Assembly (NCBI GenBank): GCA_043228905.1
Contig: JBHGNT010000020.1
Coordinates: 11,160,001 to 11,224,000, forward strand
Length of the DNA stretch: 64,000 nt
Direction: 5' to 3'
DNA from: Azolla caroliniana
Taxonomy: Eukaryota > Plantae > Polypodiophyta
Part shown: positions 12,068 through 59,300 of the stretch, piece after piece
How positions within the stretch are numbered: the stretch's first letter is position 1
Layout: each line of letters starts with the position of its first letter
Made by a program: the position numbers and the translations under genes
The notes under the pieces: model-generated
What the model was told of the DNA's origin: nothing
Seen by the model: the letters and a program-made list of their open reading frames with translations, nothing else
The model's database searches: none

Positions 12068-12097
12068 AATTGGTATCAGAGCACGGTAACACAGAAA

Positions 12098-16172: not shown

Positions 16173-16182
16173 AGGGGGAGTT

Positions 16183-16800: not shown

Positions 16801-16890
16801 GACAGACCTTCGGGAATGAAGTTCGAGCCAGCCAAGAGGGCTTTGAAATCAGCTAACAAGAGGTTACGTCGATCGACCCGCCAGAAGAAC

Positions 16891-21300: not shown

Positions 21301-21322
21301 TACTTAAATGATGTGTATAGAC

Positions 21323-22210
21323 CTAAAGGACATTAGGAATTTGACCTTTATGGTCTGCAGCTTTAGCTTTGTTGTCGTGCTCTTTCCGTTGGAGCTTTCG
21401 ACATTGATCTTTTGTATGACCCTTCTTTTTGCAGAATACGCAAAAAGGATGTTGTCGCTTACAATCGCGATCCAGGAATTCGTTGGGTGTCTTGCGTTTC
21501 CCAACAAATTGCGACTGCTTAGTCCCGGGCGCTTCGTTGGGTTTGTTGTGGTCCTTCTTCGAAGTGCATTGATAGCGAAGAACTATTTCAACAGCCTCTT
21601 CGAAGGATTTTGGATCCTTATCGTGCACTATCCAGTGATAGTCTGAATTGGGGATGCCATTGACAAAACAAGCTATCAACCAATTGTCCCCTTCTAGACC
21701 CGATTTTTGGATTTGGGTTCTAGTATGGTGAACATAGTCTTCTAGCGAGGAAAATTTCCTGCTAGAGAGGTTTATTAAAGCTTGTGCTGCCTCGGTTCGA
21801 GAGGGAGGTTGCAGAAATTGGCCCTTAAAAACCGTGACAAAATCTGTCCAGGTATCAGGCAATTTCCCCATAGTACGGAGCCCACGCCACCAGGCGGCGG
21901 CCTTACCCCCGAGTTCTCGGCCGACATATGCAATCTTCATACTATCTGGCATGGGATAGAGCTCAAAATGAGACTCCCATCGTCCTAGCCATGTGCAGAT
22001 TGCTTCTTCGGTTCTTTCCTTTTTGTCTCCTGTAAATGGCTTAACGACAAATGATGGTTCACCTTGTCGCTCATCAGGTTTATTAGTCTCACGTTGTAGA
22101 CTAATGACACGTGCCTCAAGAGCACTCTGAGATTGCCGAAGTTCGGTCATCTGTTGAGCGGTGAAACTAAGGTATTGGGTTATTTGTGCCAAATACATCT
22201 CAGTGGACAA
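21323..22210 (-). CDS. Chromovirus gag (retrotransposon gag domain plus CCHC knuckle)
   Basis: LGGKAAAWW..W.DF..F and CVFCKKKGHTKDQC motifs. The start codon is uncertain. Confidence 0.85.
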   Translation of the reverse strand: MSTEMYLAQITQYLSFTAQQMTELRQSQSALEARVISLQRETNKPDERQGEPSFVVKPFTGDKKERTEEAICTWLGRWESHFELYPMPDSMKIAYVGRELGGKAAAWWRGLRTMGKLPDTWTDFVTVFKGQFLQPPSRTEAAQALINLSSRKFSSLEDYVHHTRTQIQKSGLEGDNWLIACFVNGIPNSDYHWIVHDKDPKSFEEAVEIVLRYQCTSKKDHNKPNEAPGTKQSQFVGKRKTPNEFLDRDCKRQHPFCVFCKKKGHTKDQCRKLQRKEHDNKAKAADHKGQIPNVL

Positions 22211-23864
22211 TTTAATGTCTTTCCCTGATCTCTATATCGATTTTTTTGATGGCGGCTCCCCGAGGCTCAACCATGTATGTTCGCGTCATGAGTAGTTTAT
22301 ACACGAAAAATATGTTAACAATAAACTATGTTTCGGTGCCCACATATGTGGTTTTGGCTCTTTAAGTCCTATTACGAGGACCCCGGGGTGCACTTAGACC
22401 TTAAGTCTAAACATGTGTTATAGGCATATGTATCAAGGATGTTGTATGGTCTTGGTCATATTTGAACTCGAGACCTCGAGAACAAATACATTAAACACTT
22501 GAGCCAACCAAGTGAGTTGCTCTTCTCGAATGCTTAATGTTTAATGCGTATAAGAGATATGTGAGGCATTTGATCATATATGTTTTTTTTAAAAGAACAT
22601 ATATTTCAAGGGTCCTTATTTCGCCCTCATTTACCAAACTATGTTGGTACGTTACCTAACCTCAAGTCACGTAATTATGATGGCATACGCCAAAGTGCAA
22701 CCTAATGGTCAAGCCAAATGAGCCCTCGTTTCGTAGTAGGCCCACGTGGCCCATCACATGGTCGTGTCATTACGAATGCTTCTCGTAAGAACGAGCTCAT
22801 GGTGGCATCGTATCCATGTAACGAGGGAGGGATGTTGGATACGTGTGTCATTGGAGCGACCTCACTTGAAGTGGGTCAAGCCCTACGTACTCAACATCAT
22901 TATGGCTATTGGCGTTTCTTTACGTAACGAAATCGAGGTCATCAACGGGGTTGTCAACAATAAAGAATTGTTGAAAAAGGGATGGTGACAACGCCATTCT
23001 CACAAAAATGTGAGGACGGCCACCAACATCCTTTTCCCGACAAGGACAACTTTCGATATAATCACGTAATAACGAATATACACATATGTTTACTTATCAC
23101 ATATATACGATCAAATACGTATATACGTGACCACATATGCCTATATTAACATATCGTTATATTAAATAGCCACAAATGATGTGATCGAGATACGTAATCG
23201 AGGTATATACCTCTACGCACACGAAACATCCACAAATAAGAGATCATCGTAATACGCAATTGAGGTATTGACCTCTTACGCATACAAGACCAAACGCATA
23301 TCCTTTACAACAAATCAAGGTATTAAACTCATACGCAAACGTAACATATGTTTGTGAACGTAATACGTAATTGAGGTATTAACCTCGTACGCATACGACA
23401 CTCATCACATATTATTTATATGTCAAACAAGGTATTGACCTCGTGCACATATGTAAACATTTTAGATAATCAATTAAAGACCACTACAACATCATTGACT
23501 TAATGAAAAAAATTGACATATAAACTAAACACATGATTAAAGATGGGAGAAGAGAGAATAGAAAGAAAAAAAATTATTACGGAAAGAGTTACCAAAGTTC
23601 TTTGTTGATCGTTGTCTGGATCAAGGCCGACCGCACATCGATCGATCACCATCAATCAAACGACAAATGAAAAACAAAGAAACATTAGTACATAAATCTG
23701 ATACCAAATATTAGAGATCTAGGTACTAAAGTAAGCTTAAGATAAGCTTACGTTAGTACCTAGATCCTTTCCCCGACAAGGACAACTTTCGATATAATCA
23801 CGTAATAACGAATATACACATATGTTTACTTATCACATATATACGATCAAATACGTATATACGT

Positions 23865-24656
23865 TGTCGTGAAGAAAACCGTCCATAAGCGGAATCGGCG
23901 CACCAAGGCGTGGGAACCAGTTCTTCACGCGCGCACGCTCCAAGTTGTACATAGAAGCGAATTAGGAGGATAATCGGCAGGAACGGGCCCTAACACAAGT
24001 GGAGACAAAGACCGCGCGAACAGTCTTTTCGGTCGTGCGCGCGAGCTAAGGAACTGTACGAGTCGGCGGCGTAACTACGCGGATGCGTGAAGAACGGAGC
24101 GGATCCCTGTTCGAAAGGGACAGGGAATAAAGCTGACATGACGGCCTGCTCGTCGGCCTATATAAGGAGCAAGAAAGAGCTGTTGCAGGCATCTCGCGCA
24201 GAGAGGACGAAGTGCTGTCGGACCGTTTCTGGACGCTTCTCTCTCTGTTTCCTTCCTTCTTGAGCTCCATAGCTTTCTGTGCAGGGTTCCGAGGAGGCTC
24301 GCGCTGTTTCGAGGAACGCCCGAGTGCTTCCGGCAGCACCTCCGACCTGCTACCCCCTTTGTGCGTCGAAGCGAACAAGCATCGGCATCTGTTCGCCGGC
24401 CTGTTCGGTTGTAACCAACCTGTGCCCCATCGAGGGTTGTAGTCGTGTTAGCCATTTTGTTAATATACGTATTTAGTCATTCGCATTTGTCTGTGTCGGT
24501 GTCTGTTCGCGTTCTCCGTGCTGAAGGGCCGTGTCCCTGTGTATCCCCGGTCCTGCGTAGCAGGTTCTCTCTCTTTCTCCTCCCTGGCTTGCTCTTTGGT
24601 TCGAGACCCCCGCGGTCCCGGCTCGTTCCCACACGCACTTGCGTAATATCTCGACA
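23865..24656 (+). repeat. 5' LTR (792 bp)
   Basis: Direct repeat of 30378-31167. TATA-like ctatataagg near 24159. Confidence 0.95.
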
Positions 24657-24660
24657 TCTT

Positions 24661-24678
24661 TGGTGAACCTGACGTGAA
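24661..24678 (+). promoter_or_regulatory. Primer binding site complementary to tRNA-Trp
   Basis: TGGTGAACCTGACGTGAA versus TGGTGAACCCGACGTGAA, the recalled complement of the plant cytosolic tRNA-Trp 3' end (one mismatch). Also retained at 57232-57249. Confidence 0.8.
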
Positions 24679-24700
24679 GGAGGCGGCAGAAGAGCAGAAG

Positions 24701-26827
24701 ATGAGGGGGTCGGATCTTGCAGAGGCCATGGCTTCGGCCGTGGATCGGATTGTAAACGCGCGCGAGGGCACCGGTGCCCTCGACATAGCTATTGAGGCGG
24801 TCGTTGGCACGATCGGCCGGTTCGATGGGAAGGATGCCACGAAGTATTTGGCGTCCTACGGTGCAGAGATGCTGATGCGGGACATTCCGGAAGAAAGGCG
24901 TCTTGCCGGATTTCCCCGAGTGGCGATGCCGAGCATCCATGCGGAGGTGCTCGAGGTGCGGGCGGAGAGCCGTACCTGGGAGGAGTTCGAAGGTCGGCTC
25001 CTAGAGAAATACGGGCTGGACGACGCGCTCCGGCTTTCGAAGCGAAGGTTCATGGAATGGGTGGAGTCCCCGGGGAAGGGAAGAAACGCGTCGGCACTCC
25101 TCCGGGAGTTCGAGGAAAACTTTGCGCGCCTTTCGACGCTCGACCGAACCATCCTGGACACGAGCCGGGTCTTGCTGTTTGTCAAGTCGGTCGACGAGCG
25201 GGATCGGGAGCAAGTGGGCCTCTTGCTGGAAACCGAAGACGGGCTCACTACCGACTGGGCGGCTGTCAAGAAAGTCTGTGGCCATTTCGACAAACGGCGA
25301 GAATGGGCGGATAACGGGGCAACCGGGTCGGGCTCGGTCGTAGCAAGGAAGCTCGAACCAGCGCCACAGGTGCGAAAGGAAGAGACCCGAGAGTGGTTGG
25401 AAACCGGTTTGGCTTCGACCGGCGTAGTCAGAGGCTCAACCGGAGGAGCGGCGCTGGAGGAATTGACGAGGGCGATAAAGGACCTCCAAATCGCGCAGGC
25501 CCGAAGGGAAGGTGGCGAACCGGCTCGTGACCGACAGCCGGCGGCAGGAAACAGGTGCATGTGGTGCGATGAAGTCGGCCACATTCGGAAGGACTGCGGC
25601 GACTTCGCGGAGGCGCTGAGGAACAGGGTGGTGTACCTGTGGGAAGGACGGGTGCATGCCAGCGACACCCGAAGGGCCCTGAGCCGAAACGACGGGCGAG
25701 GTGGTATGAAAAGGTTGATGGAAGAGGCGGCGGCCCGACACGCGGAAACCGTCCACTACTCGGCGTCGGCCGGCATTCGAGTCGGGGGCGGCGAGGCCCG
25801 AAGGGAAAGCAAAGCCGGATTCTGGCCGACGATGCTGGAAGGCCTTGCCGGTGCAAGGCTTAAAAGGGAGGAATCGGACCGTGCGGAGAAACGGGTACGG
25901 GAGATGACCGGGTGGAGCGACCCGGTCGAGGAAAAGACGGGCTTCGTGGAAGCCGCTTGCCAGAACTACGAGGCTCTGGTAGAAGAGAAGCGGGTGGGGA
26001 AACCCGGGACGACCGGGCCCTCACAACGATACGAGACCCGGTCCGGGCCACGACGGGACGAAGCCGGCGGGGCCGGTACGCAAGATAAACCCCAGAAGGG
26101 CGGGTACCGTCTGGGGACGGAGATAGAAAGGACCACGGACTTACGAAAGGTCCTGGAGGAACGGATCCTCGACAGCAAGGTGGAGCTGTCGTTACGAGAG
26201 GTGCTGGGAATCGCCAAGAAGGAGTTCCACGACTCCATCGTGGACTTGGTGAAACGGAAGAGGTTGTCAACGGAGACAGAACCGGAAAGACCGGTGGAAG
26301 TGCGGACGACGCACCTAGACGACATGACGCTGGGAGACGAGTGGGCGGAAAGCCACTATTCGAGACCACACTGGGCCCGAGCGACCACGGAAACCCCGGT
26401 GAAGATCGGCGATGTCCAGGAACCGGTGATAGCTTTGGTGGACCACGGATCGGAGATCAATTTGATGTCCATGGACTTCTATAAGAAGGGCAAATGGCCG
26501 ATCAACACCAAGCACGGGTGGAAAATAAGGGCAGCAACGCGCGCCACCGAGGAACTGCACAGGGCCTGTCCGAATGTGCGAGTCAAGATCGGCGACGTCA
26601 AGATTGACCAGCACTTCTTTGTGCAGGAGACGTCTTCGCATCCGGTCATACTGGGAGAGCCGTACATCACGGCGGCGCGAATGGAGACCAAGGTGCTGGA
26701 CAATGGTTCGGCCTACGCGAGGGTCAAAAGCCAAGACGGGCGCCATTCAGTCCAGTTTCTGACGGTACGGCTGAACCACGAACGTAACCGCGACTCCCTC
26801 GGTTCCGAAAACCGAGAGGATTTTTAG
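24701..26827 (+). CDS. ORF1: Gag (CCHC knuckle) plus aspartic protease
   Basis: ATG at 24701 (the ORF track starts at GTG 24674, inside the PBS). CMWCDEVGHIRKDC knuckle, ALVDHGSEINLM and VILGEPY. Confidence 0.9.
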   Translation: MRGSDLAEAMASAVDRIVNAREGTGALDIAIEAVVGTIGRFDGKDATKYLASYGAEMLMRDIPEERRLAGFPRVAMPSIHAEVLEVRAESRTWEEFEGRLLEKYGLDDALRLSKRRFMEWVESPGKGRNASALLREFEENFARLSTLDRTILDTSRVLLFVKSVDERDREQVGLLLETEDGLTTDWAAVKKVCGHFDKRREWADNGATGSGSVVARKLEPAPQVRKEETREWLETGLASTGVVRGSTGGAALEELTRAIKDLQIAQARREGGEPARDRQPAAGNRCMWCDEVGHIRKDCGDFAEALRNRVVYLWEGRVHASDTRRALSRNDGRGGMKRLMEEAAARHAETVHYSASAGIRVGGGEARRESKAGFWPTMLEGLAGARLKREESDRAEKRVREMTGWSDPVEEKTGFVEAACQNYEALVEEKRVGKPGTTGPSQRYETRSGPRRDEAGGAGTQDKPQKGGYRLGTEIERTTDLRKVLEERILDSKVELSLREVLGIAKKEFHDSIVDLVKRKRLSTETEPERPVEVRTTHLDDMTLGDEWAESHYSRPHWARATTETPVKIGDVQEPVIALVDHGSEINLMSMDFYKKGKWPINTKHGWKIRAATRATEELHRACPNVRVKIGDVKIDQHFFVQETSSHPVILGEPYITAARMETKVLDNGSAYARVKSQDGRHSVQFLTVRLNHERNRDSLGSENREDF

Positions 26828-26883
26828 AGAGGACTGCCAAGGCGTGGGGCCGCGACAGTCCGGATGCTCCGGGAAAACCCCAC
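26818..26883 (+). promoter_or_regulatory. Predicted -1 programmed ribosomal frameshift signal (slippery heptamer plus pseudoknot)
   Basis: G GAT TTT TAG in the ORF1 frame. The -1 frame is open into ORF2. Stems GGACTG/CAGTCC and GTGGGG/CCCCAC. Conserved at 55038-55105 (-). Confidence 0.75.
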
Positions 26884-29800
26884 ATCTGTACGATAAAACC
26901 GTGTACAATAGGTAGGAAATTTTGCTTCTCCGACAGCGGAGCATGTACGATGGTCGGCATCGCCAGCCGAGAGAAAACAAAGACGGAGGGGAGACTTCGA
27001 GCGTGCGGAGTTCTCGGCCCTGACGAAGAAATCAACGGAGCCGTGGAGGCAGTCTCCTTCGACGACACCTTGGGAATGCTGGGGAAGGTAGTCGAAGAAG
27101 ACCTTAACGAAGACCGGACGATACCGGTATGTTCCGAAGAAATGTACGAAGTCATCGCGGACTTCGGTCGAGGGCTCGAGTCGGAACGGACGGCCCGAGT
27201 TAGCACCAAGTACAAGACTGTGGACCGGAAGGTGAGGCCAGTTGCGGCGCCCTTACCGGAGGGCAGCGAGTCGCGAATCAAAGGGGTTGCATCGGACCCC
27301 AGCTTACGAGATCCGGCCTGCATAGGACACACCTTCACCAACGAGACGCTCCGGGAGCTCAAAATCGGTGGAGGCGGGTTCCTACTACCGGCGGAGGAAG
27401 ACCGGTTTCGGAGAATGCTCGGAAGGCACGGGAAAGCCTTCGCATTCTCACCGGAGGAAATCGGGTGCGTAGACCCGACGATCGTAGAGCCGATGGTGAT
27501 ATTCACGGTACCGCATGTACCGTGGAATCTCAAGCCAATTCCGGTTCCGAGAGCTCACATCCCGAAGTTGATGGAGCTGTTGAAGCAGAAAGTTGATATG
27601 GGCATTCTCGAGCCGTCGAGCGCCCCGTATTCAAACCGATGGTTTACCGTACCAAAGAAAAACGGATCGTTGCGCTTCATTCAGGACCTGCAGCCGGTCA
27701 ATAGAGTGACCATTCGGAACGCAGGGATCGGACCGACCATAGACGAGTTCGCGGAGGCCTTCGCCGGAAGGTCGATTTACTCGGTCGGTGATCTATACTC
27801 AGGGTACGACCAGTTCCAGCTAGCCGTGGAGAGCAGAGACATTATGACGATGCGAACTCCCCTCGGCCTAGTGCGGATGTGTACGCTGCCGCAAGGAGGG
27901 ACCAACTCGGTGGCCCACATGGTGAATGTAATGAACAAGGTGCTGAGGGACTGCATCCCGGACATCACCATGCCGTTTCTAGACGACATCCCGATCAAGG
28001 GATGCCCGGTAGAAGAGAAGGACGAGACGATCGGGCCAGACGGATGCCGGCGATTCGTGATGACGCACATCGACGACTGCGAGAAGGTGCTGCAAAGGCT
28101 AGAGGATGCGAGGCTCACCTTCTCGGGGGAGAAATCAGCCTTCGGGCAGTCGGAAATCATGGTGGTCGGACACTTATGTGGGCCATATGGCCGGAAACCG
28201 TCTCCGGCAAAGGTAGAAGCCATCTCCGCGATGAAGCCCGACTGCAGCTCGGTCACGGAAGTACGGAGATTCCTGGGGGCATGCGCATTCTACCACATAT
28301 GGATCCCGCATTACGCCCACGTTGCGGAGCCGCTATACGGATTATTGAAGAAAGGGCGAAGATTCGAATGGCTAGACAAGCACACGGAGTCGGTCCGGAA
28401 GCTGAAGGAGGCTCTTTCGGCAGCACCGGCGCTCCGAAAGGCCGTCTACAGGAAGGGCACCCCAGTGTACATAACGGTTGACACGAGTCCGACCGGAATC
28501 GGGTGGGTCGTCAACCAAGAAGACGAGGACGGCAATCGGTTTCCGATCCGATTCGGCGCGAAGGTCCTCAGTGAGCGGCAGCGAGGATACGCCCAGGTTA
28601 AACGCGAACTCTGGGGTATCGTTTCGGCGGTGAAGGCCGACAAGGACTATCTGATCGGGACAGAGGTAATCATAGAGACGGATTGCATGCCGATTCTCGG
28701 CATGGTTTTCGGATGCGCGACGCCGGACCTGGCAATGCTCAGGTGGATAGCGTACATCAAGTCCCTGGACCCGGAAATACGACACATTTCCGGGAAAGAC
28801 AACGCCATAGCCGACATGCTTTCAAGGGCGAGATTCGATGACGAGGGCGGCATGGTTTCGGAGGACGAAGAGGTCGGCGTGGACTTCTTCGAGACTGCGT
28901 TTGTAACAACCGACGGAACAAGCACTCCGGCGCTTAGCGACTTCGACGCGAGCAAGTACGACGGGGAGTGGCTGCAGATCGGTGGGTTTTTGAAGACAAT
29001 GACGCCCGATGCGTCATGGACGAAGGACGAGGCCAACCGGATCCGGAAGAAAGCGTACCGGTTCTTTCTCCGGGATGGATACTTGTGGAAGCACCCGAAG
29101 AAGAGGAACGGCGTCCCGCTCCGGGTGGTGGCAATGAAGGAAGATCAGGAGGAGCTGCTAGCGGCCTACCACGACAGCCCTTGGGCTGGACACCGTGGAA
29201 CATGGGCTACGTTTGAGAAACTGAAGGGGAAGTATTGGTGGCCGGGGCAGTACCAGGACGTGCATCGGTTCGTGACAACTTGCGAGAGCTGTCAGATGCA
29301 CTCCGTAGTCCGACATCGAGACAAGCTTCACCCTACGTACCCTCCGGCCATCCATTTCAAATGGATGGTAGATCTGGTAACGATGCCAATGGGAGTAGGA
29401 CAGATGCGGTACCTGGTCCTAGCGCGGGAGGATCTGACGAACCAGGTGGAAGGTCGGGCCCTTCCGAACAAAACGACCGCGGCCGTATGTCGGTTCCTAA
29501 TCGAGGACGTGATATGCCGGTACGGGTGCGTCAGGAAGATCGTGGCTGACCGAGGGGAGTTGGACGCCGAAGAAGCCGCGGAGCTGTTCGACCGGCTGGG
29601 AGTCAAGCTCTCGCTCACCACTGCGTACAATCCGGAGGCGAATGGAAAGGTGGAGCGCGGACACGGACCGATCGTCAAGGCGTTGGTTCGGGCATGTGGA
29701 GGCCGAGTCGGTAACTGGCCGCGGCTGCTACCTTATGCTTTGTGGGCAGACCGGACCACGCACAGTTCGGTAACCGGGTACATGCCGACGGAGCTTATGT

Positions 29801-30306
29801 TCGGCCAGAAGCCGATCATGCCGATGGAACGGACGATCTCCTCATGGGCAACGGTCGATTGGAGGGACGAGATGAGCCGGGAGGAGTTGTTGGCCGCGCG
29901 TATACGACAGCTCGAGCGGAGACCGGAGGACGTGGAACTGGCTGCGGAGAAGCTCCGAGTGGCGAGGACGAAGAACAAAGCCAGGTTCGACCGAACGCAC
30001 CGGCTCCGACCGAAGAAAATCGAAGAAGGTGACTGGGTGCTTGTCTACGACAGCAGCCTCGACAACCAGCACCGAGCTACACGGAAGTTCGCACGAAGGT
30101 GGTTCGGGCCTTACGTGGTACGGAGCGCCAATGACAACGGGACATATCACCTGGCGGAACTCGACGACACGAGAATGGCGATACCGGTTGCAGGGAAGCG
30201 GATCAAAGCGTTCAAGAAGCGACACGACGACGAGCCAGACCCGGCTCTCCTAGTCAGCAGTGACGAACGATCCGAAAACGAGGAAGAACCGACGGGCGAG
30301 GAATGA
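26821..30306 (+). CDS. ORF2: RT, RNase H and integrase (no chromodomain)
   Basis: DLYSGYDQF, LPQGGTNS, FLDDIPIKG, VDTSP, ETDC, ADMLSR, HHCC, WMVDL/VADRG/KVERG and FGPY motifs. The frame is open from 26821; the first ATG after the ORF1 stop is 26950. Confidence 0.93.
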   Translation, partial: FLERTAKAWGRDSPDAPGKPHICTIKPCTIGRKFCFSDSGACTMVGIASREKTKTEGRLRACGVLGPDEEINGAVEAVSFDDTLGMLGKVVEEDLNEDRTIPVCSEEMYEVIADFGRGLESERTARVSTKYKTVDRKVRPVAAPLPEGSESRIKGVASDPSLRDPACIGHTFTNETLRELKIGGGGFLLPAEEDRFRRMLGRHGKAFAFSPEEIGCVDPTIVEPMVIFTVPHVPWNLKPIPVPRAHIPKLMELLKQKVDMGILEPSSAPYSNRWFTVPKKNGSLRFIQDLQPVNRVTIRNAGIGPTIDEFAEAFAGRSIYSVGDLYSGYDQFQLAVESRDIMTMRTPLGLVRMCTLPQGGTNSVAHMVNVMNKVLRDCIPDITMPFLDDIPIKGCPVEEKDETIGPDGCRRFVMTHIDDCEKVLQRLEDARLTFSGEKSAFGQSEIMVVGHLCGPYGRKPSPAKVEAISAMKPDCSSVTEVRRFLGACAFYHIWIPHYAHVAEPLYGLLKKGRRFEWLDKHTESVRKLKEALSAAPALRKAVYRKGTPVYITVDTSPTGIGWVVNQEDEDGNRFPIRFGAKVLSERQRGYAQVKRELWGIVSAVKADKDYLIGTEVIIETDCMPILGMVFGCATPDLAMLRWIAYIKSLDPEIRHISGKDNAIADMLSRARFDDEGGMVSEDEEVGVDFFETAFVTTDGTSTPALSDFDASKYDGEWLQIGGFLKTMTPDASWTKDEANRIRKKAYRFFLRDGYLWKHPKKRNGVPLRVVAMKEDQEELLAAYHDSPWAGHRGTWATFEKLKGKYWWPGQYQDVHRFVTTCESCQMHSVVRHRDKLHPTYPPAIHFKWMVDLVTMPMGVGQMRYLVLAREDLTNQVEGRALPNKTTAAVCRFLIEDVICRYGCVRKIVADRGELDAEEAAELFDRLGVKLSLTTAYNPEANGKVERGHGPIVKALVRACGGRVGNWPRLLPYALWADRTTHSSVTGYMPTELMFGQKPIMPMERTISSWATVDWRDEMSREELLAARIRQLERRPEDVELAAEKLRVARTKNKARFDRTHRLRPKKIEEGDWVLVYDSSLDNQHRATRKFARRWFGPYVVRSANDNGTYHLAELDDTRMAIPVAGKRIKAFKKRHDDEPDPALLVSSDERSENEEEPTGEE

Positions 30307-30377
30307 AGACGGGCCGGTTTTCTCCGTCCCAACTCTCTTGGCGCATACCGGAGGATGCGCGGTTAGGTGGGGGCGGA

Positions 30378-31167
30378 TGTCGTGAAGAAAACCGTCCATA
30401 AGCGGAATCGGCGCACCAAGGCGTGGGAACCGGTTCTTCACGCGCGCACGCTCCAAGTTGTACATAGAAGCGAATTAGGAGGATAATCGGCAGGAACGGG
30501 CCCTAACACAAGTGGAGACAAAGACCGCGCGAACAGTCTTTTCGGTCGCGCGCGCGAGCTAAGGAACTGTACGAGTCGGCGGCGTAACTACGCGGATGCG
30601 TGAAGAACGGAGCGGATCCCTGTTCGAAAGGGACAGGGAATAAAGCTGACATGACGGCCTGCTCGTCGGCCTATATAAGGAGCAGGAAAGAGCTGTTGCA
30701 GGCATCTCGCGCAGAGAGGACGAAGTGCTGTCGGACCGTTTCTGGACGCTTCTCTCTCTGTTTCCTTCCTTCTTGAGCTCCATAGCTTTCTGTGCAGGGT
30801 TCCGAGGAGGCTCGCGCTGTTTCGAGGAACGCCAGTGCTTCCGGCAGCACCTCCGACCTGCTACCCCCTTTGTGCGTCGAAGCGAACAAGCATCGGCATC
30901 TGTTCGCCGGCTTGTTCGGTTGTAACCAACCTGTGCCCCATCGAGGGTTGTAGTCGTGTTAGCCATTTTGTTAATATACGTATTTAGTCATTCGCATCTG
31001 TCTGTGTCGGTGTCTGTTCGCGTTCTCCGTGCTGAAGGGCCGTGTCCCTGTGTATCCCCGGTCCTGCGTAGCAGGTTCTCTCTCTTTCTCCTCCCTCGCT
31101 TGCTCTTTGGTTCGAGACCCCCGCGGTCCCGCCTCGTTCCCACACGCACTTGCGTAATATCTCGACA
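30378..31167 (+). repeat. 3' LTR (790 bp)
   Basis: Preceded by PPT-like AGGTGGGGGCGGA at 30365-30377. Confidence 0.95.
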
Positions 31168-31749
31168 ACGTGACCACATATGCCTATATTAACATATCGT
31201 TATATTAAATAGCCACAAATGATGTGATCGAGATACGTAATCGAGGTATATACCTCTACGCACACGAAACATCCACAAATAAGAGATCATCGTAATACAC
31301 AATTGAGGTATTGACCTCTTACGCATACAAGACCAAACGCATATCCTTTACAACAAATCAAGGTATTAAACTCATACGCAAATGTAACATATGTTCGTGA
31401 ACGTAATACGTAATTGAGGTATTAACCTCGTACGCATACGACACTCATCACATATTATTTATATGTCAAACAAGGTATTGACCTCGTGCACATATGTAAA
31501 CGTTTTAGATAATCAATTAAAGACCACTACAACATCATTGACTTAATGAAAAAAATTGACATATAAACTAAACACATGATTAGATGGGAGAAGAGAGAAT
31601 AGAAAGAAAAAAAATTATTACGGAAAGAGTTACCAAAGTTCTTTGTTGATCGTTGTCTGGATCAAGGCCGACCGCACATCGATCGATCACCATCAATCAA
31701 ACGACAAATGAAAAACAAAGAAACATTAGTACATAAATCTGATACCAAA

Positions 31750-32204
31750 TATTAGAGATCTAGGTACTAAAGTAAGCTTAAGATAAGGATAAAGTAATGA
31801 TAGATAGAAAGGAGAAAGAGAAAGAAGGGTGCCGATCCACACGACCACCCCCGAGCGAAGGGATCGAGACGGACTCGAGCCTCGATCGACGTCCCATACC
31901 ACCGCCGTGGCGTCGAGTCGTACCTGGTGCTGGCGCGCTCGCTACAAGAGTTGACCCACCACAAGAGCAGAGTCTCGATGTAGTCAAAAGATGATCAAAT
32001 GAGGGTAGTTAGGCCTCTTATTTATAGCGATACCCAAGGCCCCCAGGCAAGTTCACACTTGACCTAATGGGTTGTCTCAATCCTGAGGATTAAAAGTAAT
32101 CCTCCCCTTCTTTACACTCTCGTTTAACCCTCACACCTATCCACGTGTATCGAATACTACGGTAAATTCTCACCACGGGATATTAAATGGTCATGCACGT
32201 AACA
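31750..32204 (-). repeat. 5' LTR of the chromovirus
   Basis: Reads TGTTAC...CTAATA on the minus strand, followed by TT and the PBS. Confidence 0.93.
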
Positions 32205-48800: not shown

Positions 48801-49308
48801 CAATGAGCTCGAATGGGACGAGGAGCTGAAGCTACAAAAGATCGGCCGGAAGCGCGTAACCAAAACCCGTTGTCGTGTTATTCTACACGCGTAGGAGAAA
48901 CCAAGGCGGAACCGCGGGGGCCCTGAACCAGGGAATAACCGAACAGAGGGAGGAGCGACACAAAACCACGGCTGAGCCGTGCACACAAATACACAGAGAA
49001 CTCACAACGAAGATCGAACAACGAATAAGGAAAATATATATTTATGATCAAGATTACAGCCGGCTAGCCGATAAGCGTCAACGCTCTAACACCAACTCAC
49101 ACAACACACACAGACAACGCGAGATGGAGCCTCTACCGGAAGCACTCGGGCTTTCCACGAAGCAAAGGCAGCCTCCCAAAACCTGTAGAGAACAATGAAA
49201 GACAAAGGAGAAGAGCTCGGTCCCACTCCGACAACACTTCATCCTTCACAACGTGATCCCTTCTCTGTCTTCTTCCCTTCCCTTTTATAGTCCATCGGGA
49301 GGGACCGT

Positions 49309-50353
49309 TGTCGTGAAGATCCGTCACTACGTGTGGATCGTGAGGCAGAACCGTCGGGGTTCTGGACCGAAAGGACTCGAAGTTGGTGCTAGCTTTAACG
49401 AGAAAGGATTTAAGATAGATTGAAAGAGAGAGAGATTGAGATAAGATAGAACTCTTGATTTTAGATTGAGAGAGAGATTAAGATTGAACTCTTGACTTTA
49501 GATTTGAAGAACAAGGTATATCATCATAAGGATAACGAATTTTCTTCTTAATATTAATTTTGATATAAAGTACAAAGCTCTTGATAAGAATTTTACCTTC
49601 CAAAATCCCCCTCTTTTGTAAATGCCCTCATGCATTTGAGGGTTCAAGACATGCATAAAATGAATGTTTGCCATTTGGCGCTCATGTATTACATATGGTG
49701 CATAATAACCACATCACTCATTTTAGCTCTCATGTATGAGAATTTACATACAAAGTTACAATGATAAAAACATCATTTCAAGAAAATGTCTTGGTTTAGT
49801 TGTAAGCCTATAGACTCTCAACTTGGAGGTGCCAGGTTCAAATTCACACTTGCACTCCTTGTGTATACATATATTTATTTATTTATTTATATATCTATCC
49901 GATCGCCGGATGACGTCGGACCGCCGGTTACGTTGCCGATCTGGTTTTGGTTGGGCAAAACCTTTGCAAGTAGCTAAGCCACACCCATTCATCCAATAGC
50001 TTAGTTCAAGTCACCTAGAACTCTCTATGCTCCACACATAGACACAAAGATAATAGCTTTTGCTCTACCTTATATATGGTAAGATCCTTATTTCCTATCT
50101 ATGTGGGATATCTCACAGTTTTATTTTTCTCTTCTTCCTTCTCATACTTCACTCCCACATAACTTGTCACTTAGATGTCCGTTTTTTTATGTGGTAAAGC
50201 ACATTTGAAAGCTCTTGAAGACCTCCATCTTTTTGTACTAAGATATTAAACATATTTAAAATAGTATTTTCACTATTATTGTTTTATATGATTCATACTC
50301 AATTTCGTATGTTTTATGCGATTTTCACACCATTGCCGAAAATCTTCACGACA
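49309..50353. mobile_element. About 1-kb solo-LTR/TIR-like insert in the 3' LTR
   Basis: TGTCGTGAAGAT...ATCTTCACGACA. TSD CCGT/CTAT (the second copy has decayed). The empty site is visible in the partner LTR at about 57689. Confidence 0.85.
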
Positions 50354-52398
50354 CTATTATACCTTGGTCACATCAGCTTTATTCTCTGTCCCTTTGGACA
50401 GAGATACACATCGATTCCCCAAACAATAAATCTCCCCTACCTAGTATGTTTACATCAGCCGACCTATCCCCAATTATGTACTCCTCATCAATCCTTGTGC
50501 CCGCATGTAAGGGCCAGTTCATGCTCTCTATTTACCGATTCCTCCTAGGGATGGTTTTCCCCACGACATCCGCCCCCACCTAACCGCGCATCCATCAGTA
50601 TGCGCCAAAATAGATCTTTGCTGGAGAAGACCGACCCGCGCTTATCTTACGATCTCTGGATCGCCATCTGCTCCGAATCGGTCGTCGTCGTTATCCATGT
50701 CCTCTAGGTCTAGTTCGTCCTCGTGCTACTTATTGAACGCCTTGGTCCTCTTCCCGACCACCGACACAGTTATTTTTGTTCTGTCGATCTCCGCGAGATG
50801 GTAGGTGTCGTTGTAGTTGGCGCTTGTCATCTCCTCGCAAATTTCCGCATCGCCTTGTGCTGGATGTCGAGGTTGTTGTCGTAGACTAAAAGCCAATCGC
50901 CTTCCTCAATTTTCTTCGGTCGTAGTCAGTGAGTTCAGTCGAATCGCCCCTTGTTCTTTGTCCTTCCCGCACGCAGCTTCACCGTTGCTCATTCCACGTC
51001 CTCCGGTCTTCGCTCAAGCTGTCGGATTCGCATCACTAACAGCTCCTCCCGGCTCATCTCGTCTCTCCAGTCCACCGCGGCCCACGAGAAGATCGTTCGC
51101 TCCATCGGCATGATCGGCTTCTGCCCGTACATCAACTCCGCCAGCATGAACCCGGTTACCAACTGTGCGTAGTTCGGCCCGCCCACAACACGTAAGGTAG
51201 GAGCCGCGGCCAGTTCCCGACTTCACCTTCACATGCCCGTACCAATGCCTTTACGATTGGCCCGTGTCCGCGCTCCACCCTCCCGTTTGCCTCTGGATTG
51301 TACGCCGTGGTGAGCGAAAGTTTGACCCCTAACTGATCAAACAGTTCTTCGGCCTCTTGTGCATCCAGTTCTCCACAGTCCGCTACGATCTTCCCTACGC
51401 ACCCATACCGACATACCACCTCTTCGATCAGGAACTAGCACACGGCCGCGGTCGTCTTGTTTGATAACGCTCGGCCCTCCACCTGGTTCATCAAGTACTC
51501 TCGTGCTAGCACCAGGTATCGCATCTACCCTACCCCCATCGACATCGTCACCAGATCCACCATCCACTTGAAGTGGACGGTCGGCGGGTAAGTCGGGTGT
51601 AGCTCGTCCCGATGTCAGACTATGGAATGCATCTGACAGCTTTCACAAGTCGTTACGAACCAATGCACGTCTTGGTATAGTCCCAGCCACCAGTACTTCT
51701 CCTTCAGCTTCTCGAACGTTCCCCATGTCCCCCGATGCCCGGCCCAAAGACTCTCATGGTACGCCGTCAGTAATGCTTCCTGCTCCTCCTTCCTCGCCAC
51801 TACCCGGAGTGGGACGTCATCTCGCTTCTTCAAGTGCTTCCATATGCTTCCGTCCCGTAGGAAGAATTAGTATGCTTTCTTCCGGATCCGGTTAGCCTCC
51901 TCCTTTGTCCACGTCGTGTCCGACGTCATCGTTTTCAGGAACCCACCGATCTAGAGCCACTCCCCGTCATACTTGCTCTCGTCAAACTCGTTAAGCACCG
52001 GAGTGCTCCCCTTTCTCATCGTCACGTAAGTCGTCTCGAAGAAGTCCACAACGACTTCCTCTTCCTTTGAAACCATGTCGCCCTCGTCATCAAACCTCGC
52101 TCTCGAAAGCATGTCGACCATGGTGTTGTCCTTCCCGGAGATGTGCCATATCTCCTGATTTAGGGACTTAATGTACGCTATCCACCTAAGCATTGCCAGG
52201 TCCGGCATTGTGCATCCAGAAACCATACCAAGAACCAGTAGGCAATCTATCTCTATTATTACCTCTGTCCCTATTAGGTAGTCTTTGTCGGCCTTAACCG
52301 CCGAAACGATAGCCTAGAGTTCGCGTTTAACCTGGGCGTATCCTCGTTGTCGCTCGTAAGTACCTTCGCACCGAATTGGATGGGGAACCTCGTGCCGT

Positions 52399-53382
52399 TG
52401 TCGTGAAGATCCGTCACTAAGCGCGGATCGCGGGGCAGAACTGGCGGGGTTCTGGACCGAAAGGATTCAAAGTTGGCACAAACTTTAGCGAGAAAGTATT
52501 TAAGATAATTTGAGAGAGATTGATATGGCGAAAGAGAGAGAAGCAATTGACTTTAGATTTAAGAAACAAGTTACACGATCAATTCGATAACAAATTTTCT
52601 TCTCTTAAATTCGTATATAAAAAAAAGTACCCTCCCTTTCTCTTTTTCATCTCCTCTTTTATAGATGCTCTCATGCATATGATGCATGTGATGCATGCTT
52701 GCCATTTGGCGCTCATGCATTACATGTGATGCATGAGAATCATGCTAATCAATCAAGGTCTCAATGTATGAGAATTTACATGTAAAATTATAATGATAAA
52801 AATATTATTTTAAGAAAAATGTATTAGCTTAGTGGTAAGCCTATAGAATCTCAACTTGGAGGTCCAAGGTTCAAATCCACACTTGCACTCTTTGTGAATA
52901 TATATATGTGTATACATATGTTTATTTATTTATTTATATATCTATCCGGTCGCTAGATGCCGCCGGTTCGCCGCCAAAACTTATATAGTTAGGCCACACT
53001 CATTCATCATATTAACTTTGTTCAAGTCACCTTGAACTTTCTATGCTCCACACCTAAACACAAACATAATAGCTTTTTATCTACTTTATATATTGTAGGG
53101 TCCTTGTTTGTCCTGTCTATGTGGGATATCTCATAGTTTTATTTTTCTCTTTTTCCTTCTCATACTTCACTCCCACATAACTTGTCACTTAGATGTCTGT
53201 TTTTTAAGTGGAAAAGCACATTTGAAAGCTCTTGAAGACCTCCATCTTTTTGTACCTAGATATTAAACTTATACAAAATATTATCTTCACTATTATTGTT
53301 TTGTTTTTCTCGTGAGAAGAGCCACACTCGATCTCGAATGTTCCTTACAATTTCCACACTATCGCCGAAGATCTTCACGACA
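52399..53382. mobile_element. Second copy of the ~1-kb insert, within RNase H
   Basis: TGTCGTGAAGATC...GATCTTCACGACA. TSD CCGT at 52395-52398 and 53383-53386. The host frame EDENG|TRFP rejoins. Confidence 0.9.
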
Positions 53383-56300
53383 CCGTTCTCATCCTCCTAG
53401 TTGATCACCCATCCGATTCTAGTCGGACTCGTCTCTACAGTTACATGAATCGGCACATGTTTACCATAGACCGCTTTCCGGAGTGCTAGTGTTGCGGCAA
53501 GCGCTTCTTTCATTTTTCAGACCAACTATGCATGCTCCCTACCCCACTCGAACTTGTGCCCTTTCTTCAACAACCCGTAGAGCAGCTCCACAATATGGGT
53601 GTAATGCAGGATCCAAATGTGGTAGAACACTCAAGCTCCCAAGAACCTCTGGACTTCTGTAACCGACCTGCAGTCTTCCTTCATCGCGGAGATAGCTTCT
53701 ACCTTAGCCGGAGACGGTTTCCAGCCATAAGGCCCGCACAAGTGTCCGACGACCATGATTTCCGACTGTCCGAAAGCCGATTTCTCCCCAAAGAAGGTGA
53801 GTCGCGCGCCTTTCAGCTTCCGTAGCACCTTCTCGCAGTCTCCGATGTGGTCCGAGAAGAATTTCCGACACCTGTCCGATCTGATCGTTTTGTCCTTATC
53901 CTCCACCGAACATCCTTTGATCGGAATGTCATCCAAAAACGGCATGGTGATGTCTGAGATGCAGTCCCTTAGCACCTTATTCATCGTATTCACCATGTGT
54001 GCTATCGAGTTTGTCCCCCCTTGAGGAAGGCTACACATCCGCACTAGGCAGAGAGGAGTCCGCATTGTCGTAATATCTCAGCTCTCTACGGCTAGTTGGA
54101 ATTGGTCATACCCCGAGTAGAAATCCCCGACCGAGTAAATTGACCTTCCGGTGAAGGCCTCCGCGAACTCGTCAATGGTCGATCCGATTCCTACGTTCTG
54201 AATGGTCACCTTGTTGACCGATTGCAGGTTTTGAATAAAGCACAACGTGTCGTTCCTCTTTGGCACGGTAAACCACCGATTCGAGTATGGGGCACTCGAC
54301 AGTTCGAGGATGCCCATCTCCACCTTCTACTTCAGCAATTCCATCAGCTTTGGGATGTGAGCTCTGGGTACTGGAATCGGTTTGAGATTCCACGATACAT
54401 CCAATACCATGAAGATAACCATCAACTCAATGACCGTCAGGTCTACGCACCCGATCTCTTCCAGCGAGAATGCGAAGGCCTTCCCGTGCCTCCCGAGGAT
54501 TCCCCGAAACCGTTCCTCCTCCGCTGGCAGTAGAAAGCCACCCCCACCGACCTTGAGCTCCCGTAGCATTGTGTTGGTGAACCGGTGTCCTATGCCGGCC
54601 GGATCCCGTAGACTTGGGTCCGACGCGACCCCTTTCATCCGTACCTTGCTGCCCTCTGTCAAGGGTGCCGCGACTGGCCTCACCTTCCGGTCCACAGTCT
54701 TGTACCTTGTATCCACACGAGCCATCCGATCTGACTCGACCCCTTCCCCAAAGTCGGCGATGACTTCGTACATCCGTTCCGAACTAACCGGAAATTTCTG
54801 GTCTTCACTGGGGTCTTCTTCGAGCACGTTCCTCAGATCTCCCAAGGTGTCGTTGAAAGAGACCGCCTCCACGGCATTGCCTATCACTTCGTCGGGGCCT
54901 AGAACTCTGCATGCCCTAAGACGTTCCTCCACCCGCTTCTTCTCCCAGCCGCTAATGCCGGTTATTGTACAGTCTCTGTTGTCGGAGAACCAACATTTCC
55001 TGTCTATAGTACAGGGTTTCCTTCCTATGGTACACTTGTGGGGTTTTTCTGGGGTGTCCAAACTATCGTTGCCCCACGCCTTGATAGCCCTCTCTAAAAA
55101 TCCCCTCGACCTTCACCGCTGAAGGTCTCGCGGTTGCACTCATGGTTCGGTCACACCGTTAGAAATTGGACGGAGTGCCGCCCATCTTGGCTCTTCACTC
55201 GGGCATACGTCGAACCATTATCCAGCACCTTTGTCTCCATGTGTCCCGCCGTGATGTATGGTTCGTCGAGGATCACTGGGTGCGAGGATGTCTCCTGCAC
55301 GAAGAAGTGGTGATCAATCTCGACATCGCTGATCTTTACTCGTACATTTGGGCAGGCCCCGTGTAGTTCCTTTGTGGCGCGCGTCGTTGCTCGTATTTTC
55401 ACCCATGCTTGGTGTTGATTGGTCACTTACCCTTCTTGTAGAAGTCCATGGACATCAGGTTGATCTTTGAACCGTGGTCTACCAACGCCACCACCGGCTC
55501 CTGGACGTCTCCGATCCGAACGAGGGACTTCGTAGTAGCTCTAGCCCAATGTAGCCTCGAATAGTGGCTTTCCGCCAACTCGTCCTCCAAGGCCATATCT
55601 TCCAGGTGCGTCGTTCGCACCTACACTGGCTTCTCCGGCTCCAGTTCGGTCGAAAGTCGTTTCCGCTTCACCAAGTCCACAATGAGGTTGTGGAACTCCT
55701 TCTTGGCGATCCCGAGCACTTCCCTTAATAACAGCTCCACCTTGTTGTCAAGGATTTGTTCCTCCAGGACCTTTCGTAGATCCATCGTCCTTTCTATCTT
55801 GGTGCTCAGTCGGTAACCGGCCTTCTTTGTCTTGTCTGGTGCGTCGGTGGTATCGGCACCATTCTGCTTCGACCCGAACCGGGTCTCGTACCATTGTGAG
55901 GGTCCGGCCCCTCCGGCTTTTCCCGCACGCTTGTCCTCTACCAAAACCTCGTAGTTCTGGCACACGGCTTCCACGAAGCCAGTCTTTTCCTCGACCGGGT
56001 CGCTCCACCTGGTGACCTCCCGGACCCGTCTTTCCGCACGGTCTGCTTCCTCCTTCCTCAACCGCACGTCGGCGAGGCCTTCTAGCACCAACGGCCAGAA
56101 CCCGGAGTTCTTCGTCTTCCGGCCTTCGTCACTCCTGACCCGGATTCCTACCGACGCCGAGTAGTGGATGGTCTACGCATGGCGCGCCGTCGCTTCTTCC
56201 ATCAGCCTTTTCATTCCTCCTCGTCCGATATTCAGCTCCAGGGCTCTCCGGGTCTCGCTAGTGTGCATTCGCCCGTTCCATAGGTACACCACGTTAGCCC

Positions 56301-59300
56301 TTATCGCTTCTGCGAAGTCCACGCAGTCCTTCCAGATGTGACCGACTGCGTCACACCACAAGCACCAATGCCCATCCGGAGGCCTCCGGTCGCGAAACTG
56401 CTCGTCGCCGTCCCTCCTTGCCTGTGCAATCTGGAGGTCTTATACCATCTGCATCAGCTCTTCTAGAGCCGCTCATCCGGACGGGCCCTTGACCACGTTG
56501 GTCAAAGTCAAGCCTGTCTCAAGCCAATCCTAGGTTTCCTCCCTTCCCGCCAGCGGGGGTCCCTCGAGCTTTCATGCTACAACCGCTCCTGCCCCCAATG
56601 AGCCCTTGTCGACCCACTCACGCCATTTGTCAAAATGGCCACAGACTCTCTTTACCACGACCCAGTCAACCGTTAGCCCATCATCCGTCTCCAATAGGAG
56701 ACCCACCTGATCTCGATCCCGCGCATCCACGGATTTGACAAACAACAAGACGCGGCTCGTGTCCAGCACTACTCTGTCCAATGCCGAGAGCCGTGCGAAG
56801 CATTCTTCAAACTCCCGGAGAAGCGTCGACGCATTCATCCCCTTTCCAAGGGTCTCCACCCAATCCATGAAGTCCCGCTTTGATAACCGAAGCGCGTCAT
56901 CAAGCCCATACTTCTCAAGGAGCTGACCTTCGAATTCTTCCCAGGTCCGGCACTCAACCTGCACCTCAAGCACCTCCGCGTGGATGCCCGGCATTGCCAC
57001 CCGAGGGAATCCGGCCAGCCGCCTATCCTCCGGAATGTCCCTCATTACCATTTCGGCTCGGTAGGCCTCTAGATAGCTCGTGGCGTCCTTCCCACCGAAC
57101 CGGCCTATTGTACCAACAATCGCTTCGAGGGCGCATGTGCCCTCACGCGCACTCACTATCCGATCAACGGCAGAAGCCATGGCTTCAACAAGCTCCGATC
57201 CCCTCATCTTTTGATTCCTCTACTGCCTTGTTTCATGTCGGGTTTACCAAATTAATGTTGTGTTATTCTGCACGCACAGGAGAAACCAAGGCGAGACTGC
57301 GAGGGCCCTGAACCGGGGAATAACCGAACAGAGGGAGGAGCGACACAAAACCATGGCCGAGCCGCGCACACAAATACACAGAGAACTCACAACGAAGATC
57401 GAACAATGAATAAGGCAAATATATATTTATGATCAAGATTACAACCGGCTAGCCGGTGAGCGTCAACGCTCTAACACCAACTCACACAACGCACACGGAC
57501 AATGCGAGATGGAGCCTTTGCTGAAGCACTCGGGCTTTCCACGAAGCAGAGGCAGCCTCCCAAAACCTGTAGAGAACGATGAAAGACAGAGGAGAAGAGC
57601 TTGGTCCCAGTCCGACAGCACTTCGTCCTTCACAACGTGATCCCTTCTCTGTCTTCTTCCCTTCCCTTTTATAGGCCGCCGGTAGGGACCGTTACACCCT
57701 GGTCACATCACCTTTATTTTCTGTCCCTTCGAACAGAGATACGCATCGATTCCTAGACAATAAATCTTCCCTACCTAGTATGTTTACATCAGCCGACCTA
57801 TCCCCAATTATGTACTCCTCATCAATACTTGTGCCCGCGTGTAAGGGCTAGTTCACGCTCTCTATTCACTGATTCCTCCTAGGGACGGTTTTCTCCACGA
57901 CACCGTCGTGCTCGGATCGAGCTACCGAACCTCAACAGGGTCTTGGTCAAGGTTTACCGCGAATTGGAGAAAGCAACTTGCGTTGCCAAAGACATGGCAG
58001 TCAGCAGCAGACAAGCACGCAAACAGGCCAAAACGGCTACCGACTTGTGGTAGGATTCGAAGAGCCGACTCACTGATCTGGGACAACGGCTCAAAGAATC
58101 CGGGCCAACCAATCTTCTCACCCTACCAACCCCTTCTTCCAATCATGTGGATGTGTGCACACAGACCGAAGACACAACCGACTCGGTGTCGGACACGGAG
58201 ACGGTCAAGGACCCAACACCCAATTCCAAGGAGGATATTGTGGCGCAATCGACAATGGCCGAGAAAGCAAAAGAGCATTATGAAGCGGCTAAAGAAGAAG
58301 CTGACCAACTCTGTGCGCAGGCAGCAAAACACAATGTAGAACTCCAACAATTGTTCGACGGACAGACGGCTCAGCTTCAAGAGACGGAAAGGAAAGTCGT
58401 CGCATCTCTCAAGGCCGCTCATGACCTCGCCACAGCAAAAATAGCCGAAGTTGAGGAAGGGCATCAATGGGCATACAACCGACAATCTGAAGAACTCCTA
58501 ACTCTACAAAACAAACTCTCAAAACTTCATATCCGCTCCAGTCAGCACCTTCAAATGTTAGACGTAGTTGAGCAGGAGAAACATACATTGTCAGAGTCCC
58601 TCCACCAATTGCAAATCTCCAGGACGCTCGAACTCGAACAGCAGTGGGATCAATATATGCAAGAGTTAGCCGATAATTCGGATCGCCTCCTCTGACGCTA
58701 CGACCTACATACGAAGGAAAATGAGAAAAAGCTCGTCGAAGTTGTCGTATCGTGCAAGATCCTCAAAGCCAAGCTCGAACGGAACATCACGACGACTAAA
58801 GAAGAACTCGACACCCTCCATGCCAAATATGAAATGGGCGAAACCAAAGTGAAGGCACTAGTGGCAAAGCATCTGCTGAAGCTGAATCAAAAAGTTGAAG
58901 AAGCACTCGCTCGTGGATGGAATGAATGGGTACCTCAAGCAGCCGAGTTACACGTCTTCCGAGCATATGCCAAAAATCAGAAAAAAGAGGGTCGTGGTTT
59001 TTACAAGATGGACGAGAATAGCATTCAGATCCTTCGTGAAGACCTCACCGAGAAATTCCAAGCCCTGGCCCGCACACACACCACGGCCATCAGGAATCTC
59101 CTCAAAGAATTTAACAATAATCAACTATTGCTCACGATTGAAACAGAAGGCTATCTGAACGCCTCCAAGCTAAGAAAGAAGTTGAAGCCGCAACACAGGC
59201 CTTAACAGGCCACATGACTGAAGAAGCAGTCCAGCAGCAGAACGAAGACGCAGCGTAGCCTAGGGGCTGACAGAAGAAGAGGGGAGGTGCCTGAGCCAAA

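Follow-up and report, generated by a model that had tools for sequence, protein, structure and literature searches.

Plant Ty3/Gypsy retrotransposons do not all keep gag and pol in one open reading frame (ORF). Splicing is described as the well-characterised plant route in the available part of a 2025 review (PMC12786077). In addition, the survey of Neumann et al. (2019, PMC6317226), in its tabulated part, gives an intron for Ogre, a single stop for Retand, and overlapping gag/protease frames for Tcn1 and Selgy, and it enters the ORF organisation of Phygy as 'ND' (Additional file 5). In this study, we analysed 64,000 nucleotides (nt) of DNA from Azolla caroliniana (GCA_043228905.1, contig JBHGNT010000020.1, positions 11,160,001 to 11,224,000), hereafter the window, which holds an intact long terminal repeat (LTR) retrotransposon of 7303 bp at 23865-31167. 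Two ORFs fill its internal region: ORF1 encodes Gag and protease (PR), and ORF2, in the -1 frame, encodes reverse transcriptase (RT), RNase H (RH), and integrase (IN or INT). An original prediction, made from the letters of the window, had placed an RNA-virus-type -1 frameshift signal at this junction and had held that plant Gypsy elements mostly use a single ORF or splicing. The latter calls for a caveat, since elements with two ORFs, parted by frames (Tcn1, Selgy), a stop (Retand), or an intron (Ogre), are not rare; because the overlaps of Tcn1 and Selgy were already tabulated, such elements are not new either. The former survived our tests on 80 related loci, and judging from sequence we regard pseudoknot-stimulated -1 ribosomal frameshifting at the protease/RT boundary as highly probable.

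Ogre and Retand (Tat clade) resemble the window family in that the break lies at the protease/RT boundary, with Gag-protease in excess over RT-RH-INT. They differ in the device, which is an intron in Ogre and mostly a single in-frame stop in Retand, whereas the window family has overlapping frames. Meanwhile, Rous sarcoma virus carries its protease in the Gag frame. There, a heptamer and a pseudoknot direct a -1 shift into pol, according to the available part of a 2016 review (PMC5009743); but the heptamer and the structure are others, the virus is an enveloped animal virus, and the likeness is one of layout only. The same part of the review describes many animal retroelements with -1 heptamer sites and only +1-frame cases for plant retroelements in a 2003 survey. 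It treats G_GA as a tolerated XXX variant in X_XXY_YYZ heptamers, found at established plant-virus shift sites, gives this G_GA at the P-site position for dianthoviruses, some umbraviruses, and insect-specific flaviviruses, and sets the spacer range from heptamer to 3' structure at 5-9 nt. The sites of dianthoviruses and umbraviruses are decoded by plant ribosomes, as the present one would be. However, the stimulators of these viruses are, in that source, bulged stem-loops with long-range pairing, whereas the window has a compact local H-type knot. No sequence relationship to viral shift sites was seen: an Rfam scan of the element gave no match to the site (and one irrelevant weak match), and none of five pattern matches in the viral contigs scanned was confirmed. 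The term 'RNA-virus-type' suits the mechanism, but the data hold no sign of transfer from an RNA virus.

Frameshifting of this class is textbook knowledge. We found no description of such a signal for a plant retrotransposon in a literature search outside which most subscription literature and the repeat databases lay, and the available part of PMC11963269 held nothing relevant. The protease/RT overlap, the defined signal, and a clade with pol in the -2 frame appear to be new.

The candidate shift site and its conservation

All coordinates of the original prediction were correct when the letters were rechecked. ORF1 ends GAG GAT TTT TAG, with the heptamer in the slippery register claimed for it, and ORF2 is open in -1 into RT. 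The parts of the site are as follows.

26818..26824, + strand: slippery heptamer G GAU UUU (in register, G GAT TTT)
26825..26830, + strand: spacer of 6 nt, starting with the ORF1 stop UAG (TAG, 26825-27)
26831..26838, + strand: stem 1, 5' arm (C26837 unpaired in the window copy)
26844..26849, + strand: stem 2, 5' arm GTGGGG, within the stem 1 loop
26854..26861, + strand: stem 1, 3' arm
26862..26877, + strand: loop 3, 16 nt in the window copy and 11-16 nt across 21 family representatives
26878..26883, + strand: stem 2, 3' arm CCCCAC

GGACTG (26831-36) with CAGTCC (26856-61) interleaves with GTGGGG (26844-49) and CCCCAC (26878-83), which gives the H-type topology. The six stem 1 pairs stand as predicted, but the stem is 8 bp long in the family (26831-38/26854-61), and the window copy has a C.A mismatch in it at 26837/26855. 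The canonical features of -1 frameshifting are present, namely a heptamer in register, a 6-nt spacer, a covarying 3' structure, and a long conserved -1 ORF. Furthermore, the frame break lies after the protease and not at the gag/protease boundary, as had been proposed, because the last ~130 residues of ORF1 take the retropepsin fold in prediction. This predicted fold matches the Ddi1, XMRV, and HIV proteases (best E 2e-6); the Pfam match to the domain is weak and below the cut-off.

We propose that most ribosomes would terminate at the ORF1 stop, yielding Gag-protease. A minority would stall at the pseudoknot with GAU in the P site and UUU in the A site, and the two tRNAs would slip back one base in tandem, tRNA-Asp from GAU to GGA and tRNA-Phe from UUU to UUU. 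The slipped ribosomes would make the full Gag-PR-RT-RH-IN polyprotein as a minor product, and one unspliced genomic RNA would give a high ratio of Gag-PR to RT/IN.

A metagenome scan confirmed 175 loci, and the loci counts given here rest on the best 80 of them. With the intact copy and a second, decayed copy in the window, the set comprises 82 sequences, of which 79 reach the ORF1 stop. G_GAU_UUY stands directly before this stop in 67 of the 79 (GGATTTT in 64, GGATTTC in 3). The stop that follows is UAG in 28, UAA in 28, and UGA in 11, so the predicted GGAUUUU with a UAG behind it holds for the heptamer but is not specific for UAG. Seven more sequences have a heptamer that precedes the stop by one or five codons (GGTTTTT and GGGTTTT in two each; GGATTTC, GGATTTT, and GGTTTTC in one each). 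The base 5' of the Asp, Gly, or Val codon is G in 75 of 75 heptamer-bearing sequences, across 14 different codons. At the protein level, 53 of the 120 homologues listed have an Asp-Phe C-terminus. Among 149 pooled homologues, ORF1 ends in DF in 76, GF in 3, NF in 2, [DG]F-xxx-P[LF] in 28, VFx in 2, and otherwise in 8; 23 more run on, 5 are without the anchor, and 2 are truncated. By source name, each of the 23 run-on proteins is a eukaryotic gene model.

The frames behind the junction are also conserved. We located the RT start motif in 62 of the 79 sequences, and 59 are open to it in -1, two in -2, and one is broken. The 59 are open for 119-154 codons up to the motif, and every one has stops in frames 0 and -2. 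At least 900 codons are open after the junction in 33 sequences, 31 times in -1 and twice in -2; intact copies with both ORFs in one frame, which would speak against the signal, were absent (0/33). Stop-codon readthrough was rejected as a candidate, with a long frame-0 ORF after the stop in 0/33 and all three stops in use. In addition, the linker before RT is under purifying selection (dN/dS 0.15-0.48 in four pairs), and the transframe peptide is conserved (F-L-x-R-T/A ... D/N-S-P).

Prokaryotic genome contigs gave two loci only, L081 in a cyanobacterial metagenome-assembled genome record and L082 in a Streptomyces assembly. Both are short contigs with a plant-type retrotransposon and are probably contaminant plant DNA in those assemblies. 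L082 is too short to reach the site. In L081, added afterwards, the site reads G GAU UUU UGA, pol lies in -1, and a centroid fold shows an unrelated stem 1 sequence at the equivalent place. In two DNA runs, the summed contig depth is highest over 26822-26847, in keeping with strong conservation among copies; this depth is not copy number and was not counted as evidence.

Pairing of the predicted pseudoknot arms

By itself, the window site is only marginal and not striking: among control windows of its own element, ~95% have a poorer best pseudoknot (p 0.047). It is the evidence from relatives that places the site beyond chance. RNAalifold recovered stem 1 unaided from 46 distinct sequences, with 8 pairs, 6 of which have changes on both sides. 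For pair counts in these sequences, 0 of 500 shuffles reached the observed values, and sliding the register lowered pairing from 84.5% to 35-50%. Stem 2 counts in the ungapped alignment (A2) are unreliable, since the length of loop 3 varies, and register-free tests were used instead.

To limit relatedness, we sorted 74 loci by their upstream 300 nt (80% identity), which gave 23 families. A simple H-type finder detected the knot in 22 of the 23 representatives; with the heptamer in 67 of 79 sequences, most other copies keep heptamer and stems, the lack of which would have counted against the original prediction. In 21 of 23 families, the knot outscores 95% of control windows taken from the same locus, and the two that fail (L036 and L070) were dropped as decayed low-coverage copies, which left 21 representatives. 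When arms were swapped among these, 0 of 20000 permutations reached the own-arm duplexes of either stem, whose energies were -9.4 versus -6.1 kcal/mol for stem 1 and -10.8 versus -8.1 for stem 2. Stem 1 spans 31 nt in all 21 and begins 6 nt past the heptamer in 19, namely those with pol in -1. Stem 2 shows paired changes: one position has U-A in 7 representatives and C-G in 7, and a second has G-C in 13 and A-U in 5, in a register chosen to maximise pairing. Furthermore, synonymous third positions are kept to the pairing base and change with the partner, and amino acids vary where pairs stay. Both stems covary across the 21 representatives, and this comparison of sequences is far stronger evidence than the earlier two-copy case.

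The two-copy case used the second copy in the window.

48871..57902, - strand: second, older and decayed element copy (LTR pieces alike at 91-92%, target duplication CCGT, and two insertions of ~1 kb)
55038..55103, - strand: its heptamer (55103-55097) and pseudoknot arms

This copy is ~77% identical to the main copy. Its ORF1 has a frame break and 9 stops, and 6 stops fall within the first 577 codons of its ORF2. Its heptamer and arms are as had been described. The double change from G-C to A-T in stem 1 is real, but we set it aside as proof of covariation because the changed bases are both in CHG context and the copy is decayed. At this pair, the 46 distinct sequences have A-U in 35, G-U in 5, and G-C in 2. 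Since A-U is the family norm, the G-C of the window copy is probably the derived state. The two terminal G.U pairs of the second copy occur in 1 of the 46 sequences and look like decay.

Competing explanations and the -2 clade

Several points weigh against frameshifting at this junction. Host breadth is narrow at the DNA level, since a single block of neighbouring assembly accessions supplied 76 of the 80 loci. Four of the 79 sequences are without an in-frame heptamer and a fifth has only a spurious one; these five look broken or chimeric. A distant protein (P0166, 43% identity) has protease and RT in one frame; it is contig-derived and may be a true single ORF, known from protein only. At the window site, nested folding does not outdo shuffles (z = -0.71), and there is a competing nested fold, built from stem 2 and an inner hairpin. 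The C.A mismatch of stem 1, also common among close relatives, is present in most RNA reads (20/20 in X23, 12/14 in X21). The knot finder is a simple two-helix H-type scorer without pseudoknot-aware energies. Two negative controls of the swap test were null and one was mildly positive (510/20000), so relatedness inflates the swap tests somewhat. Finally, knot formation in vivo, the shift of ribosomes at the site, and the shift rate are inferred from sequence.

Pol could also be supplied by splicing as in Ogre, where the conserved structure would regulate splicing or packaging, but we consider this very improbable. The Ogre intron does sit at the same protease/RT boundary (tabulated part of PMC6317226), and gene models in Physcomitrium, Riccia, and Adiantum link protease to RT over the junction. 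However, these models omit differing, inconsistent stretches, one Riccia cluster also has adjacent two-gene models, and no GT offset near the junction is common to more than 8 of the 23 representatives. A linker that is open in -1 over its whole length, as in 59 of 62 sequences, is unneeded for an intron. No joint over the junction, that is, no spliced RNA bypassing the site, was seen in relatives' RNA from three poly(A) runs and one RNA contig set at a low depth of ~14-20; the only indels listed near the site in RNA reads were 9-nt in-frame insertions in the linker. Joined protease-RT proteins (six matches among the longer proteins) were also considered and rejected, being eukaryotic gene models with the junction region missing or replaced.

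A separate pol made by reinitiation, or from a subgenomic RNA, at a linker Met, with the structure as an initiation or packaging signal, is just as hard to credit. Many families do have a Met ~20 codons before the RT start motif, and a pol-frame AUG lies at -26, -17, and -1 from the ORF1 stop in L055, L067, and L079, but 18 of the 23 representatives, the window copy included, have none within ~36 nt of the stop. Purifying selection acts on the open linker 5' of the internal Met, the invariant in-register heptamer would be left unexplained, and no pile-up of RNA starts was reported at this low depth. We see an equally slight chance that the pseudoknot is incidental and that the conservation reflects constraint on the protein (a cleavage site or linker motif) or transcriptional slippage on the U run. 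The transframe peptide is conserved, and one would expect a cleavage site close to where the protease ends; yet third positions covary with the pairing partner, amino acids change where pairs persist, and protein constraint alone offers no route beyond the ORF1 stop. As for slippage, the U run is only 5 long, and RNA reads (depth ~14-20) hold no inserted base at 26820-26825. We prefer -1 frameshifting stimulated by the pseudoknot.

Meanwhile, two loci, L055 and L067, form one clade (support 100/99) and have pol in -2.

L055:2836-2905: candidate -2 site, AG_GUU_UUU with a 5-nt spacer
L067:2498-2567: candidate -2 site, AG_GUU_UUU with a 5-nt spacer

Both read CAG GUU UUU NAC UAG. Pol is open in -2 for 1151 codons in L055 and 1098 in L067, and -1 closes within a few codons. 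Stem 1 is strong in both (z -2.3 and -2.6) and starts 5 nt past the heptamer. Their proteins are 81-83% identical; because dS is ~1.2 and dN/dS ~0.075 in both ORFs, both ORFs were under purifying selection while the -2 register was shared. The ORF1 endings of L055 and L067 recur in 6 and 2 checked cluster members on different contigs, which argues against an assembly slip. A second search for further members gave only the same two clusters. We lean towards the view that the signal was retuned from -1 to -2 by the change from G_GAU to G_GUU and the loss of one spacer base, with the elements remaining active over dS ~1.2; our confidence is modest because the -2 case rests on two DNA loci. The same knot would then drive a -2 shift into pol. 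The alternatives to a -2 shift are a +1 shift, or reinitiation at AUGs that lie 26 and 17 nt upstream of the stop and are not homologous.

L079 (1258-1300), a single low-coverage contig, has G GUU UUC, a 6-nt spacer, and pol in -1, and its ORF1 stop overlaps a pol-frame AUG (AUGA). By its sequence it appears to be a form one step from L055 and L067, yet it is not their sister in the tree. In Riccia sorocarpa, ORF1 of three homologues (P0101, P0309, and P0311) ends Val-Phe-Pro-Asp-Ser-Leu-Leu, and this family, known from proteins only, may have another GUU UUN shift site.

A -2 shift on GG_GUU_UUU is described for PRRSV, the virus behind porcine reproductive and respiratory syndrome, where an nsp1beta/PCBP complex acts on a C-rich motif without RNA structure (available part of PMC4937337). 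L055 and L067 are like this arterivirus system (nsp2TF) in AG_GUU_UUU, the long ORF in -2, and the early stop in -1. They are unlike it in having a predicted pseudoknot 5 nt downstream in place of a protein stimulator and in that the product is the essential polymerase; they would work like it at the shift site only. In addition, -2 is favoured on U6A with pseudoknot stimulators when the spacer loses 1-2 nt, according to the available part of PMC3458567. If true, the clade would rely in nature on an RNA structure to shift ribosomes by -2 into an essential reverse transcriptase. It would also put the spacer-tension model, so far shown with engineered spacers, to a natural test.

The host element and its affiliation

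The features of the intact element are listed below.

23861..23864, + strand: left target-site duplication ACGT (NCGN type), same 4-mer at 31168-31171
23865..24656, + strand: 5' LTR (TG...CA), 98.9% identity to the 3' LTR over 792 nt
24661..24678, + strand: primer-binding site, a conserved motif
24701..26827, + strand: ORF1, Gag (capsid-like domain, CCHC knuckle, DUF4100) and protease, 708 aa from the first ATG, ending Glu-Asp-Phe-stop
26384..26767, + strand: retropepsin-type aspartic protease domain (predicted fold; Pfam weak), D-H-G active-site variant (Asp codon 26441-26443)
26788..30306, + strand: ORF2, -1 frame, stop to stop, with a 128-codon linker followed by RT, RNase H, and integrase
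~27649-28173, + strand: RT, within ORF2
~28369-28758, + strand: RNase H, within ORF2
~29140-29634, + strand: integrase, within ORF2
30365..30377, + strand: polypurine tract, from the letters
30378..31167, + strand: 3' LTR
31168..31171, + strand: right target-site duplication ACGT

Stop to stop, ORF1 spans 24647-26827, with its first ATG at 24701. The domain order between the LTRs is GAG-PROT-RT-RH-INT, and a Pfam scan of both ORFs found no chromodomain and only one RNase H region. The part of ORF1 at 24779-25360 has a capsid-like predicted fold (predicted local distance difference test score, pLDDT, 88), whose best matches, the dArc, MLV, and PNMA2 capsids, are weak (E 0.08, prob 0.98; none below E 0.001). 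D-H-G-S (26441-26449 in the window), as against D-T/S-G, is the first such active-site motif in 136 of the 149 homologues. The primer-site motif, with C replacing the T of the window copy, occurs at 38 other places in the loci. It is a putative primer site of tRNA-Trp type, in line with the Phygy entry of Neumann et al. (2019). No tRNA was found in the 64-kb window, and a literature search for the motif gave no paper match. Among the 120 homologues listed, the named ones are from Physcomitrium patens (58-70% in the protease region), Riccia sorocarpa, and Adiantum nelumboides, which makes a seed-free land plant the probable host.

Phygy is the only lineage with an NCGN duplication and uses tRNA-Trp, and 186 Physcomitrella Phygy elements measure 7.66-9.97 kb, a descriptive range and not a classifying criterion (Neumann et al. 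2019, PMC6317226, available part). The window element shares with Phygy the 4-bp NCGN duplication, the absence of a chromodomain, a coding region that fills the internal part, and close Physcomitrium homologues. The duplication is ACGT in the main copy, CCGT in the second copy and in one of its ~1 kb inserts, and CCGT on one side only in the other insert. The putative primer site would be of the tRNA-Trp type that the survey gives for Phygy. Unlike Phygy, the element is 7.3 kb long, and its homologues reach a liverwort and a fern. Phygy has its ORF layout entered as not determined, whereas here gag-PR overlaps RT-RH-INT in the -1 frame. Because 7303 bp falls outside 7.66-9.97 kb, we file the element, on its sequence features, as only Phygy-like Ty3/Gypsy, non-chromovirus.

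The window holds other elements. The intact element sits nested inside a chromodomain Gypsy element on the minus strand (~16888-32046), which is decayed. The latter has Ty3 capsid, RT, RNase H, and chromodomain, and its gag and protease share one frame, parted by a single TAG (21323-21325) that may be a readthrough stop or a mark of decay. Tandem repeats of ~257-261 nt, 97-100% alike, lie at 17880-18651 (three copies, interrupting the chromovirus integrase region) and at 43994-44513 (two copies). A young Ty1/Copia element at 11478-16692 has LTR pieces 99% alike and a single stop inside RT (14792-14794). The two inserts in the second copy (49309-50353 and 52399-53382), ~1 kb long and 74% alike with inverted ends and CCGT flanks, are probably solo LTRs of another NCGN-targeting family.

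A covariation-supported -1 signal in a Gypsy lineage would add ribosomal frameshifting to the plant routes and would fill the ORF organisation of Phygy that is entered as not determined. At the protease/RT boundary, related plant lineages would use three devices, namely an intron, a single stop, and a frameshift. The signal would also explain the invented introns in gene-finder models of these elements. Furthermore, the 23 families would serve as an allelic series, supplied by nature, for a single compact pseudoknot geometry, and the pair of -1 and -2 forms would make the spacer-length model testable with natural sequences.

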